From an uncultured Candidatus Binatia bacterium (lineage in GTDB: Bacteria; Desulfobacterota; Binatia; Bin18): DNA of 64,000 nt. Positions 32,147-37,232 of this stretch are shown here, one piece after another. The notes beneath the pieces are model-generated. The model worked only from the letters and a program-made list of their open reading frames with translations. It made no database searches and was not told where the DNA came from. Location: the NCBI GenBank assembly GCA_965242605.1, contig CBDESS010000004.1, positions 96,139 to 160,138 on the forward strand. Direction: 5' to 3'. Each line of letters starts with the position of its first letter. Position 1 is the stretch's first letter. The position numbers were made by a program, and so were the translations under genes.

Positions 32147-35100
32147 TCAGCTCGCCCAGCCGGCAGACAACACCTCGGCCTGCTCCAGCACGGTCCGGGT
32201 TGCCCGCTCCTGCTTGTCGGGTGAGTAGCCGTGCTTGCGCAGGGTGCGTTTGACCAGCCGGCGCAGATTCTCCCGCACATGCTCGCGCAGCGTCCAGTCG
32301 ATTGTTACGGCGTTGCGTACAGTTTCCACCAACTCACGCGCGATGCTACGCAGGGTCTCATCGCCCAGTACCCGCACCGCGCTGTCGTTGGTCTCCAGCG
32401 CGCCGTAAAAAGCCAACTCGTCGTCCGACAGCCCCAGCGCCTCGCCCCGGGTACACGCCTCCCGCCGCTCACGCGCGAGCTGGATCAACTCCTCAATCAC
32501 CTGCGCGGCCTCAATCACCCGGTTCTGATAGGCAGCGTGTCTTCCAGCATTGCGGCGAACGACCGTGCCTGGACGACGTTTTTGCTGCGACGGGTCGCCA
32601 GCTCGCTCTTGAGCAGCTTGTGCAACAGTTCAACCGCCAAGTTGCGCCGCGGCATATCCCGTACCTCGGCCAGGAACTCGTCTGACAGGCCCGAAATATC
32701 GGGCTTGTCCAGGCCGGCCGCGGCAAAGATGTCGATCACCCCCTCGGACGCCACCGCGTGCGAGATAATCTGGCGCACGGCGTGGTCCAGCCCCTCATGA
32801 TCCAGCTCCTCTTGGGACCGCCCGTCGGCCGGCGCGCGTTTGGCCAGTACCGACCCGACGGCCTGAAAGAAGGCGACATCGTCGCGGATGCGCAGCGCGT
32901 CTTCGTGCGGCACAGCCAGGGCGAAGGCTTGGGACAGTTCACGGACCGCCCCCACGCAGCGCTCCTTGCCCTTGTCCTGGGCCAGGATGTGTTCCTGGGC
33001 GGCCGGCAGCAGACCTAGCCGCTCTGCGGGCGGGCCGGTGGTCCAGCCGGAGCGGGCCAGGCCGTGGAACAGGCCGCAGCAGACTTCGTACTTCTCCTGC
33101 ATGGCCGCTACGGCCTCGTTCTGGTTGAGCGCAGTCTGTCCCGTGCCGCCGCTCTCGGTGTAGGTGGCCAGCGCGCGCTTGAGTTCAGGGGCGAGGTCCA
33201 GGTCATTGACGACGAGGCCACCCGGTTTGTCCTTGAACACCCGGTTGGCCCGGGCAATCGCCTGCATCAGCGCGTGGCCGCGCATCGGCTTGGCGAGGTA
33301 CATGGTGTGCAGGCTCGGCGCGTCAAAGCCGGTCAGCCACATGTCGCGCACCAGCACCATGCGGAGCGGGTCGTCGGCGTCGCGGAAGCGGCTGGCCAGG
33401 GTCTCGCGCCGGGCTTTGGTGCGGATATGCGGCTGCCAGTCGGGCGGGTCGGACGCCGCCCCGGTCATCACTACCTTGAGCCTGCCCTTGGCGTCGTCTT
33501 CGTCATGCCAATCGGGACGCAGGGCCACCAGCCGGCGATAGAGGTTGATGCAGACGCGCCGGCTCATGCCCACCACCATTGCCTTGCCCTCCAGCGCTTC
33601 AAGCCGGACCTCAAAATGGCTGATAATGTCCTGGGCAATGAGGGCTAGGCGCGTGTCAGCCCCGACGACCGCTTCGAGCTGCGCCCATCTGGTTTTGAGT
33701 TTTTCCTTGACCACGCTCTCCTGGCCCTCGGTCACTTCTTCAAAGGCAGGGTCGATTCTGGGCCGTTGGCTCTCGTTCAGATTGAGCTTGGCCAGCCGGC
33801 TCTCGTAATAGATCGGGACGGTGGCCCGGTCCTCAACCGCGCGCTGGATGTCGTAGACGCTGATGTAGTCGCCAAATACCGCCCGCGTGTTGGCGTCCCG
33901 GCATTCTATCGGCGTGCCGGTAAAGCCGATAAACGAGGCCCGGGGCAGAGTCTCGCGCATATGGCGCGCATAGTCGTCGATAAAGTCGTACTGGCTGCGG
34001 TGCGCCTCGTCGGCAATAACCACGATATTGCGCCGCTCCGACAGCAGGGGGTGGCGGTCGCCCTTCTCTTGGGGAAAGAACTTCTGAATTGTGCTGAACA
34101 CCACCCCGCCCGATGCTGTCGCCAGCCGGTCCCGCAGGTCGGCCCGGCTCTCGGCCTGGACCGGCGGCTGGCGCAGCAGCTCCCGGCAGCGGGCAAAGGT
34201 GGCGAAGAGCCGATCGTCAAGATCGTTGCGGTCGGTCAGCACCCAGCAGCGTCGGGTTGTGCATGGCCGGCTCACGGATGACCCGCCCGGCATAGAACGC
34301 CATGGTCAGGCTTTTGCCGGCACCCTGGGTATGCCACACTACGCCGATACGCCGGTCGCCCGTTCTCCCGCCGGGCCGGCGGCCAGACGTATAGCCCCGG
34401 CTGCCCTCGCTGACCGCCTCTCCCTGCATTTCGGCCGCCCGCAGGGTTTCGGCAAGCGCTGTCTCGACCGCGTGAAACTGGTGGTAGCCGGCCATTTTCT
34501 TGACCAGCCGGCCGCTGCCGTCGTCCTCAAAGACGATGAAGTCGCGCACTAGACTGAGGAAGCGCTTAGGCGTGCAGACGCCGGCCAGCAGGACGTGCAG
34601 TTCGGGCAGGTGCGGGTCGGCCAGGGTTTCGCCCGGGATTGTGCGTCAGGGCTTGAACCACTCCCGCCCCGCGGTCAGGGTGCCAATACGCGCTGTCAGA
34701 CCGTCAGACGCGATCAGCACCGCGTTCAGGCTGAACAGCCCTGGCAGTTCGGCTTTATAGGTCTGCAACTGCTGCCAAGCCGTCCAGGATGGTAGCATCC
34801 TTGTCGGTCGGATTCTTGAGTTCGATGAGGCCGAGCGGCAGGCCGTTGGCGAACAGCACCAAGTCGGGCCGGCGCTCGTGCTTGTTCTCGACCGCGGTGA
34901 ACTGGTTGACCGACAGCCAGTCGTTATTCGCTGGCTCGTCATAATCAAGCACCCGGGCCGGCGCGCCCCGGATATCGCCGTCAGCGGCCCGGTACTCGAC
35001 CGCCGCTCCGTCCACCAGCATACGGTGGAAGGGACGGTTGCGGGTTTCCAGCGTTGGTCCTTGCGGGCGGGTCAGCGTGCGGTAGGCGTCGTCCAGCACC

Positions 35101-35302
35101 TCGGCAGGCAGCTCCGGGTTGAGACGGGTCAGGGCATCGCGCAGACGCCTTTCCAGCACGACTTGGCCATAGTCCACGCGCTCTGCGGCCGGCGTATCGG
35201 CGCAATGTCCGGCCCATGGGCTACGCCCCAGCCCTGGCCGGCCAGCCAGTCAAGGGCGGCGGCTTCAACGGTGGATTCGGTCACTCTGGGCATGGATGAC
35301 AT
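32147..35302 (-). pseudogene. hsdR: Type I restriction enzyme R subunit HsdR, multiply frameshifted
   Basis: N-term [20 protein letters not shown]... (ATG 35302); helicase motifs ...[29 protein letters not shown]; DUF3387 C-terminus 32147..32518. Spread over at least 5 ORF fragments in different frames (35177-34755, 34549-34217, 34293-32515, 32518-32147); 1-bp deletion visible at 32518. Confidence 0.8.
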
Positions 35303-35351
35303 GATGGGGTGAGCGGGGCGAAGGCGGCAGCTTCAACATCGGTGCAGACGC

Positions 35352-36783
35352 TCATAGGTCTTCGAGCTTGCCGAGGAGTGCAAGGCCCCGTTCCGCCTTA
35401 GCCGCGGTGTCTTCGTCACCGGCTTCTCGGGCCAAGGCAAGCGCCTTCTCGAAATCCCGCCGAGCCTCGTTCACCTGCTCCAATAGAGCGTTAGCGACGG
35501 CCCTGTTGTTGTAGGCTTGGGAATAGTCCGGCTTGAGCCGGAGCACCCCGCCGCGGCGGTCGCGGAATCGGCCGTTTTTGCGGTCACGGGCCAGAAATCA
35601 CAGACAGGCCGGAATCCGGGTCAAATAGAAGAGTTGGCCCGGCAGGGCGATCATGCAGTCCACGAGGTCGGCCTCAATCAGGCTCTTGCGGATGGTACCC
35701 TCGTTTGACTGGTTGGACGATATGGAGCCGTTGGCCAGCACAAAGCCGGCAACGCCGGCCGGGGCCAGATGGTGGACGAGGTGCTGCACCCAGGCGAAGT
35801 TGGCGTTGCCCTTGGGCGGGACGCCGTACTGCCAGCGCTTGTCCCCGGTCAGCCGCTCGCCGCCCCAGTCGGAGACGTTGAACGGCGGGTTGGCCAGGGT
35901 GAAGTCGGCCTTGAGGTCGGGGTAACGGTCGTTGTGGAAGCTGTCGCCGTAGGCGATCTGGCCCTCAATGCCACGGATGGCGAGGTTCATCTTGGCTAGC
36001 CGCCAAGTTGTGTAGTTCGACTCTTGGCCGTAGATCGAAATATCGGCCCGGACACCGGCCGGCGTCCGTCGGCTATTGCCGTTGCCGCTGGCGTGGACGC
36101 GGATAAACTCGACCGACTGCACGAACATGCCCGACGAGCCGCAGCACGGGTCATAGACCCGGCCCTGGCAGGGATCCAACATCTTGACGAGCAGCGTGAC
36201 CACGCAGCGCGGGGTGTAGAACTCGCCGCCCTTTTTGCCCTCGGCGCTGGCGAACTGTGACAGGAAGTATTCGTAGACCCGGCCGAGCACATCCTTAGGA
36301 CCGGGCATCCTCATCACCCACCTTGATGTTGCTGATGAGGTCAATGAGCTGGCCGAGCCGCTGCCTGTCGAGCGCTGGGCGGGCGTAGTCCTTGGGCAGC
36401 ACGCCTCCCAGCGTCAGGTTGTCGCGGCTCGATACCGGTCATGGCCTTGTCAACGGTTGGCCGATGCTTGCCTGCCGCGCCCGTGCCCTGAGCTGCGTCC
36501 AGCGGGCCTCGGGCGGCACCCGGAAGATGTTCTCGGCGCGGTACTCGTCCGGGTCTTCGGGGTCAGCGCCCTGGTCTTGTTCGCCAAGGAGGCGGGTGTG
36601 CATCTCCTCAAAGGCATCGGAGATGTATTTGAGGAAGATCAGGCCAAGGACGACATGCTTGTACTCGGCGGCACCCATATTGCCCAGGGTGTCGGCCAAG
36701 TGTCACAGCTCGGCCTCATAGCCGGTCGTGGCGGCCTAGCCGTCCGGCGTTGTCTCGCGGTCGGATTGTTGGCTATCGCTCAT
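35352..36783 (-). pseudogene. hsdM: Type I R-M DNA methyltransferase HsdM, with in-frame stops and frameshifts
   Basis: ATG 36783 (ATGA overlap with upstream thioesterase stop). N-term [54 protein letters not shown] has TAG and TGA where family conservation (GYEAELW) calls for W. Core ...[27 protein letters not shown]...NPPFN... reads IPACL then TGA at 35598-35600 (W expected), then FLARDRKNGRFRDRRGG and divergence. Confidence 0.8.
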
Positions 36784-37232
36784 ACGGCGCTCTCAGATGT
36801 TCTGTTGGCCACCACCGTCCAGGTGCTGGTCACCAGCCCGACCAGCTCGTCTTTGGCGGTGGTGATGCGGGCTTCCACAAAGGCCACGCGCCGGCCCTTG
36901 CGCAGTACCTTGCCCTGGCCGCGCAGCAGACCCTTGGCCACCGGCTTGAGAAAGCTGATCTTGAGTTCGGCGGTGGTAGCCAGCTCGCCGGTGTCAAGCA
37001 CCGAGCCGATTGCGCTGGCCATGAGTTCGTCGCCAAACACGGCCAAATAGCCGCCCGAGACAGAGCCAAAGGGGTTGAGCACCCGCTCTTGACTGGCCTC
37101 CCACTCCCAGACCGATTCGCCGGGACGAAAGGCTACGGCCCGCAGGCCGAGTTCTCTGTGCAAGGTCGAGAGGTAGTCCTCAGGCCGATTTTCACGCAGC
37201 GCTTGGTTGAGTTTTTCAACAGGAGACAGCAT
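36780..37232 (-). CDS. PaaI/hotdog-fold thioesterase
   Basis: 150 aa; hotdog-fold PaaI-like core (GGYLAVFGDELMASA...AELKISFLKPV...); first gene of the operon containing hsdM/hsdR. Confidence 0.7.
   Translation of the reverse strand: MLSPVEKLNQALRENRPEDYLSTLHRELGLRAVAFRPGESVWEWEASQERVLNPFGSVSGGYLAVFGDELMASAIGSVLDTGELATTAELKISFLKPVAKGLLRGQGKVLRKGRRVAFVEARITTAKDELVGLVTSTWTVVANRTSESAV

Follow-up and report, generated by a model that had tools for sequence, protein, structure and literature searches.

Is the string of broken hsdM and hsdR reading frames behind an intact thioesterase gene a working Type I restriction-modification (R-M) operon that has been misread, or is it the relic of one, and if a relic, how was it lost? 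The question is raised by a 64,000-nucleotide (nt) stretch of contig CBDESS010000004.1 from an uncultured Candidatus Binatia bacterium, here called the window, in which the two genes are read on the minus strand from 36783 to 32147. The locus was compared with loci from other assemblies, metagenome scaffolds, and metagenome-assembled genomes (MAGs), labeled L001 to L090. The best explanation, which we consider very probable, is that the window holds an inactivated, eroding Type I R-M island that carries a deletion of at least 4.3 kb together with an accumulated set of smaller lesions.

Domain content of the hsdM and hsdR relics

The list of open reading frames (ORFs) and the three-frame translation of the minus strand from 37300 to 32100 contain one intact ORF of 150 amino acids (aa), at 37232 to 36780, followed by a string of short ORFs. 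The intact ORF (36780 to 37232, minus strand) encodes a hotdog-fold thioesterase (Pfam 4HBT, 1e-13). On the separate pieces that follow, Pfam matches occur in the order HsdM_N, N6_Mtase, TPR, HSDR_N, SWI2_SNF2, T1R_D3-like, and T1RH-like_C. The hsdM pseudogene (35551 to 36783, minus strand) retains codons 1 to ∼414 of a 546-codon gene, with matches to HsdM_N (E = 1.5e-14) and N6_Mtase (E = 3e-78, profile positions 3 to 227 of 311), and is ∼83% identical at the amino acid level to the intact HsdM of L075. The domains and motifs of an HsdM subunit (HsdM_N, N6_Mtase, and the S-adenosylmethionine FxGxG-like and NPPF motifs) are present, by homology only, and the NPPF motif is still legible.

The hsdR pseudogene (32147 to 35302, minus strand) is full length and consists of five frame segments with one in-frame stop; its pieces match HSDR_N, SWI2_SNF2, T1R_D3-like, and T1RH-like_C. 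It is ∼75% identical at the amino acid level to the intact HsdR proteins of L004, L005, and L009, and its largest fragment scores 340 against TIGR00348. The HsdR architecture of an N-terminal PD-(D/E)xK nuclease, a superfamily 2 motor, and a C-terminal helical domain is likewise recognizable, by homology only, and the ELK nuclease motif can still be read.

An intact ortholog of the locus

A search with the thioesterase identified a homologous locus, L082, on a 138-kb metagenome scaffold, where the encoded thioesterase is 94% identical over the aligned part. The gene order of L082 is bioF, thioesterase, hsdM (546 aa), a gene of the HI0074-type nucleotidyltransferase-binding family, an MNT-HsdS gene (583 aa), a 259-aa gene, a TPR gene, hsdR (1,076 aa), and a luciferase-like gene. 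L082 is colinear with positions 47453 to 31060 of the window, at 90 to 92% nucleotide identity both on the two flanks and inside the R-M locus, and is therefore the intact ortholog of the window locus. The hsdM relic is ∼92% identical in nucleotide sequence to L082 positions 10500 to 11741, and the hsdR relic is 91.5% identical to the hsdR of L082. The same allele is carried by L083 and L084, from other samples, and at the orthologous site all three loci possess intact hsdM, MNT-HsdS, and hsdR genes with full Pfam coverage. The intact order of thioesterase, hsdM, hsdS, and hsdR that the initial annotation had proposed to look for in relatives thus exists in all three, with other genes interspersed.

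The closest known system is Type I R-M with a HindI-like HsdR C-terminal domain; the nearest structures are the EcoR124I HsdR (PDB 2w00) and the methylation subunit 3khk. L082 resembles Type I systems in all three subunits: its HsdM comprises HsdM_N and N6_Mtase (phmmer E = 5e-145 to 3khk), its HsdS contains Methylase_S, and its HsdR comprises HSDR_N, SWI2_SNF2, T1R_D3-like, and T1RH-like_C, scoring 546 against the TIGR00348 cutoff of 285 and matching 2w00 at E = 1e-26. Unlike a working Type I system, the window has lost hsdS, its hsdM is truncated and fused to a TPR sequence, and both remaining genes contain multiple stops and frameshifts.

The specificity gene of L082 has a further peculiarity. 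At positions 12286 to 14452, an MNT-type nucleotidyltransferase domain forms the N-terminus of a fusion with HsdS, and the HI0074-family (HEPN-like) substrate-binding subunit precedes this fusion; on sequence, the two would amount to a toxin-antitoxin-like pair built into a Type I operon. N-termini similar to that of the L082 MNT-HsdS were also observed in L004, L006, and L009.

Lesions in hsdM and hsdR

Lesions were called by frameshift-aware protein-to-DNA alignment against three intact HsdM and three intact HsdR proteins; nucleotide and codon alignments to L082, used as a second approach, agreed. All positions refer to the minus-strand genes. In hsdM, a TAG at 36736 to 36738 stands in the variable N-terminus where L082 has CAA (Gln), and a TGA at 36703 to 36705 replaces the conserved Trp of GYEAELW, which is encoded by TGG in both L082 and L090. 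An in-frame 3-nt deletion at 36684/36685 has removed the Arg of the ADxLRG motif. Downstream lie a −1 frameshift at 36455/36456, +1 frameshifts at 36427 and 36297, and a TGA at 35598 to 35600 in place of the conserved Trp of IPACLWF (TGG in L082). In hsdR, a −1 frameshift at 35200/35201 (CCC to CC) is followed by a +1 frameshift at ∼34788, a TGA at 34646 to 34648 for the conserved Trp of FKPW (TGG in L082), a +1 frameshift at ∼34244, and a 4-nt deletion at 32531/32532 within the DTL(R)RYQN stretch.

In total, four nonsense codons and seven frameshifts make 11 disabling lesions, with small in-frame indels besides. Neither gene retains an uninterrupted frame: hsdM has three nonsense codons and three frameshifts and lacks codons ∼415 to 546, and hsdR, with four frameshifts and one TGA, falls into six ORF pieces if the TGA is counted. 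All four nonsense changes are compatible with a GC-to-AT change. The seven indels are all outside runs of more than 3 nt, and the repeat tracts that would mark phase variation were absent from all of these sites.

Much of the initial annotation, made from the letters of the window, was borne out by these alignments, which supplied the count of stops and indels it had asked for. It described a pseudogenized hsdM-hsdR pair, frameshifts in hsdM, and at least five frame fragments in hsdR; the Pfam domains on separate pieces, the three hsdM frameshifts (−1 at ∼36455, +1 at 36427 and 36297), and the five hsdR segments agree with that description. Other details needed amendment. The annotation placed TAG and TGA codons at conserved Trp positions, which holds for TGA at both positions named, while the TAG replaces a Gln. 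A deletion does lie near 32518, where a single G was thought to be missing, and by alignment it is the 4-nt loss at ∼32531. The hsdM gene had also been drawn down to 35352, beyond the point where HsdM homology stops, and the deletion that ends it at 35551 had been missed.

A deletion of at least 4.3 kb between hsdM and hsdR

HsdM homology ends at 35551 (approximately codon 414 of 546), and from position 35550 the alignment resumes at L082 position 16066, shortly before hsdR. At this junction (35551|35550, minus strand), L082 positions 11742 to 16065 are missing from the window. Judging from L082, the lost segment contained the 3′ end of hsdM, the HI0074-type gene, MNT-hsdS, the 259-aa gene, and most of the TPR gene. 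The sequence CGCGGC occurs as a microhomology at both edges of the deletion, and the junction is in frame, so that the last repeat and C-terminus of the TPR gene (35352 to 35550, minus strand; TPR matches and 85% nucleotide identity to L082 16066 to 16304) are fused to the truncated hsdM. That this tail might be a part of HsdM was considered and rejected, since in all relatives the homology to HsdM breaks off at codon ∼414 to 423 and the tail itself corresponds to the final part of the TPR gene that precedes hsdR in L082.

The TPR gene of L082 (15300 to 16264) is an array of near-identical 34-aa (102-nt) repeats, and its stop overlaps the start of hsdR. The repeat array accounts for a 100-N scaffold gap in L082 (15964 to 16063), and because of this gap the deletion size is given as at least 4.3 kb. 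A minus-strand 281-aa gene called across the array in L082 is probably spurious. TPR cargo genes were also found in L012 and L034.

No Methylase_S domain occurs between hsdM and hsdR in the window, and the ortholog of the 583-aa MNT-HsdS falls within the deleted segment. Decay had been suggested to follow the loss of linkage to the specificity subunit; hsdS is indeed gone, having been removed by the deletion rather than merely unlinked. In Type I enzymes, HsdR is active only in complex with the M2S1 core. With HsdS and a complete HsdM both missing, the relic locus would be capable of neither methylation nor restriction.

The thioesterase and the ATGA overlap

The intact thioesterase gene ends in a stop codon that overlaps the ATG of hsdM as ATGA (36783 to 36780). 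The overlap was correctly read in the initial annotation, which took it as a sign of translational coupling. In L082, 16 nt separate the stop codon of the thioesterase gene from the ATG of hsdM, and in this region the window has deletions of 9, 32, and 9 nt that bring the frame to the TGA within ATGA. The overlap arises only in the window lineage, which leaves the coupling without an ancestral basis. Thioesterase homologs are typically 143 to 144 aa long and end in TWTVVA(S/G/Q), with the canonical 143-aa form found in L086, a MAG labeled Desulfurellaceae. In the window the protein reaches 150 aa, its last ∼7 codons and its stop being supplied by the left edge of the R-M island; that of L082 has 160 aa, and the two tails are unrelated. 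These unrelated C-terminal tails beyond the 143-aa form argue that the island was inserted at the thioesterase stop codon. The ATGA overlap is thus a scar of island insertion and later small deletions, not an ancestral operon.

The enzyme had been called a PaaI thioesterase, which is also how relatives are annotated at the source (“PaaI family thioesterase”). The assignment is sound at the level of the hotdog-fold family (TIGR00369 score, 57.0; cutoff, 36.6) and fails at the level of the PaaI equivalog (TIGR02286 score, 30.9; cutoff, 118.9).

Timing and cause of decay

To date the loss, substitution patterns were compared between the window and L082. The ratios of nonsynonymous to synonymous divergence (dN/dS) of hsdM (0.26) and hsdR (0.27) lie inside the range of the flanking genes (0.03 to 0.43), indicating that most of the ∼9% divergence accrued under constraint. 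When replacements were polarized with four outgroups, 42 derived replacements at outgroup-invariant columns fell on the window lineage versus 18 on that of L082 (p = 0.002); over all columns, the numbers were 68 versus 44. Taken together, the flank-like dN/dS and the excess of derived replacements (42 versus 18) indicate that the decay is recent. As a rough estimate, 24 excess replacements over ∼3,300 nonsynonymous sites would correspond to ∼1% neutral divergence since constraint was lost. Loss of constraint would then occupy about a tenth of the window branch and would be older than the 0.5% split from L001, a contig that already shares lesions with the window.

The history that best accommodates these results begins with a Type I R-M island, in the order hsdM, HI0074/HEPN-like gene, MNT-hsdS, 259-aa gene, TPR gene, and hsdR, which would have been inserted at the stop codon of the hotdog thioesterase gene in an ancestor of the lineage. 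In the window lineage, a single microhomology-flanked deletion of at least 4.3 kb would have removed the 3′ end of hsdM, hsdS, and the cargo genes. The remnant would then have gathered its four nonsense codons, seven frameshifts, and small in-frame indels. The relics would by now be nonfunctional and invisible to selection; both this order of events and neutral erosion after the first knockout are what we infer.

Loss could instead have been adaptive. Restriction, or the defense load as a whole, may have been selected against, for example in favor of DNA uptake or upon a change of lifestyle, and the locus would in that case have been lost as part of a more general purge. The window does contain a second decayed Type I locus (19557 to 22371), a broken GAF/histidine-kinase-like gene, and a frameshifted oxidoreductase, and in L090 the same R-M locus has been erased, independently or to a greater extent. 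However, intact alleles persist in co-sampled relatives from at least three samples, many lesions combined with flank-like dN/dS are what neutral erosion after a single knockout predicts, and two alleles are too few for a test of selection. We regard adaptive loss as unlikely, though not negligibly so. A broader form of the idea draws on the three states seen in related populations (intact in L082, freshly eroding in the window and L001, almost erased in L090), on the second dead Type I locus, and on the other broken accessory genes; that these together reflect a lineage-wide, possibly selected shedding of defense is more doubtful again.

Authenticity of the lesions

Neutral erosion of an inactivated island presupposes that the lesions exist in the organism. 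The operon could conceivably be intact and the lesions due to faulty sequencing or assembly, given that the source is apparently a metagenome-derived genome, and an isolated frameshift also occurs in a flanking FAD-oxidoreductase gene, at 46738. A second assembly bears on this directly. L001, a 2.8-kb contig, covers positions 39061 to 36271 and is 99.3% identical to the window, differing by 13 substitutions and three indels. It carries five of the six lesions that it covers in identical form, namely the TAG at 36736 to 36738, the TGA at 36703 to 36705, the 3-nt deletion, and the +1 insertions at 36427 and 36297. The −1 at 36455 is the sole covered lesion that it lacks; L001 reads CAACTCGTT there. 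This one absence would also fit an error in the window, but the sharing of the other five indicates that the lesions are real and, with the −1 missing from L001, that they are still accumulating.

Lesion density points the same way, with 11 lesions in ∼1,444 R-M codons versus one, the frameshift at 46738, in ∼3,401 codons of 12 flanking genes compared with L082 (Fisher p = 1.4e-5); the flanking codons are clean except for that site. Four of the lesions are base substitutions to stops, an atypical mode of error, and no indel falls in a homopolymer of 4 nt or more. A loss of 4.3 kb or more whose junction is in frame and flanked by microhomology does not resemble an error pattern, and the window lineage also has an excess of amino acid replacements at conserved sites. 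Errors are, on this evidence, a very improbable source of the lesions. Sequence comparison instead confirmed the lesions as genuine and the locus as a pseudogenized Type I hsdM-hsdR pair.

TGA terminates 20 of the 34 long ORFs of the window, including bioF, bioA, bioB, and hisF, making it the commonest true stop, and Trp is encoded by TGG throughout the validated genes; the window thus shows no sign of a code in which TGA is read as Trp (codes 4 and 25-like), in line with what the initial annotation had maintained. Continued expression, whether by recoding (TGA read as Trp or by readthrough, programmed frameshifts) or by the phase-variable switching known from some Type I and Type III systems, would suit the three of four internal stops that are TGA at Trp positions and the −1 at 36455 and +1 at 36427 that restore the frame over ∼10 codons, but it is extremely improbable given the usage of TGA and TGG, the additional TAG, a stop within the out-of-frame stretch from 36455 to 36427 itself, the lack of a simple-sequence tract at any indel, the physical loss of hsdS and the HsdM C-terminal domain, and TGG in L082 at all three TGA sites.

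Several points weigh against the reading of the locus as an eroding island inactivated by deletion. L001 may come from the same sequencing project; it would then be a separate assembly, from a slightly different population, whose sequencing chemistry need not be independent. No second assembly was found for hsdR or the deletion junction, and an exact search for the junction in JGI metagenomes was negative; the thioesterase matches suggest that the JGI metagenomes lack the window lineage. Look-ups of exact products returned no match for the luciferase-like gene (two candidate starts), a 592-aa HsdR fragment, or the hsdS at 19566 to 20828. The scaffold gap in L082 leaves the exact size of the deletion and its right-hand context uncertain. 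Finally, neutral and selected loss cannot be told apart.

A variable defense site

On its right-hand side, the variable site is bounded in the window by an intact luciferase-like monooxygenase gene (30987 to 32123, plus strand; Pfam Bac_luciferase), a chromosomal flank that is likewise present in L082, L088, and L090. Among named relatives, those nearest to the lineage are MAGs labeled Desulfurellaceae and Candidatus Binatia. In L090 (87 to 92% nucleotide identity), only ∼1.3 kb separates the thioesterase gene from the luciferase-like gene, and this stretch includes a typical HsdM N-terminus of ∼37 codons, with the TGG intact, which then breaks off. In L088 (85% amino acid identity), the site is occupied by a HEC-01A/B candidate defense pair (PADLOC E = 6e-138 and 5e-62). 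Judged by its gene content, the thioesterase-luciferase site is a variable defense locus, and the Type I system there ranges from intact through decaying to nearly erased.

Alternative cargo at one site (Type I in L082, the HEC-01A/B candidate in L088, almost nothing in L090) recalls the hot spots of defense islands. Unlike at such hot spots, no integrase, tRNA, or mobile-element repeats were seen at the site in the window. Rfam and tRNA scans of the window returned only a tRNA-Leu(UAA) at 2343 to 2431 and no RNA element linked to the R-M locus.

Inactivation of this kind has precedents. In Mycoplasma agalactiae, frameshifts and premature stops inactivate hsdR or methyltransferase genes, leaving truncated hsdR among them, with erosion, duplication, and horizontal transfer reshaping the R-M repertoires (PMC9465063). 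Many of the M. agalactiae lesions fall in poly(A), poly(G), or GA tracts, where they represent reversible phase variation (PMC9465063), whereas no lesion of the window lies in a repeat tract and the multikilobase deletion makes the loss irreversible. The locus is a case of ordinary R-M turnover at a variable defense site, with no new kind of system or mechanism. For annotation, the ORF fragments should be recorded as pseudogenes and not as an hsdM-hsdR operon, nor should the thioesterase overlap be read as an operon. The orthologous site, occupied by an intact locus, a decaying one, or a relic, provides a datable example of R-M turnover, and the three-state series could be used to calibrate indel-to-substitution rates in an uncultured lineage.

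The Type I family itself extends far beyond this lineage. A scan of one genome per species with a 596-aa HsdR fragment recovered 80 loci at 59 to 79% identity, mostly with intact HsdR. These relatives (L002 to L081) occur in MAGs labeled Spirochaetia, Acidobacteriota, Chloroflexota, Latescibacterota, Nitrospirota, and Planctomycetota, and in methanogenic archaea. Matches across so many phyla and into the archaea point to very wide horizontal spread and a highly mobile family.

Variable cargo, such as TPR genes, a helicase with DUF2290, and others, lies between hsdS and hsdR in the loci of relatives. In L004, a pair of genes with AAA_21-like and DUF4276-like N-terminal sequences occupies this position (7149 to 8935), the likeness being one of sequence and not of a domain scan. 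The corresponding pair of an AAA_21 ATPase and DUF4276 (PADLOC HEC-01A/B) stands alone at the site in L088 (10604 to 12398). On the other side of the thioesterase gene, a CoA-transferase gene (CoA_transf_3, 784 to 794 aa) lies between bioF and the thioesterase gene in L086 (7553 to 9907), L087, and L088 (7571 to 9955) and is fragmented in L090. It is absent from L082 and from the window (37233 to 37398), where only ∼160 nt separate the two genes.

Other broken loci in the window

A GAF/histidine-kinase-like gene (27636 to 28319 and 30576 to 30968, plus strand) is broken in the window, whereas L088 has it intact (580 aa). In the window it lacks the N-terminal ∼218 codons, has frameshifts at 28074 and 28144, and is split by a 2.26-kb insert. 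The insert (28320 to 30575) has a low GC content (49 to 52%), is absent from L088 and L090, and yielded no Pfam match and no convincing terminal repeats. An FAD-dependent oxidoreductase gene of the DAO family (46375 to 47518, plus strand) is split into two ORFs by the +1 frameshift at 46738 and carries a three-codon LAY duplication relative to L082; the frameshift marks either a young pseudogene or a lone assembly error.

The second Type I remnant (19557 to 22371, plus strand) is separate from the first and has no hsdM upstream. It consists of an apparently intact hsdS ORF of 420 aa (19566 to 20828), 383 codons from the 5′ end of a 722-codon UvrD-like helicase cargo gene (20844 to 21992), 85 codons from the 3′ end of a 224-codon DUF2290 gene, which carry a +1 frameshift at 22112 (22022 to 22268), and the first ∼37 codons of another hsdR (22270 to 22371), all on the plus strand. 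This hsdS was considered as the missing partner of the hsdM-hsdR pair, moved by inversion, and was rejected: its remnant ends with its own, different hsdR N-terminus at 22270 to 22371, and the hsdR that starts at 35302 is complete at its 5′ end.

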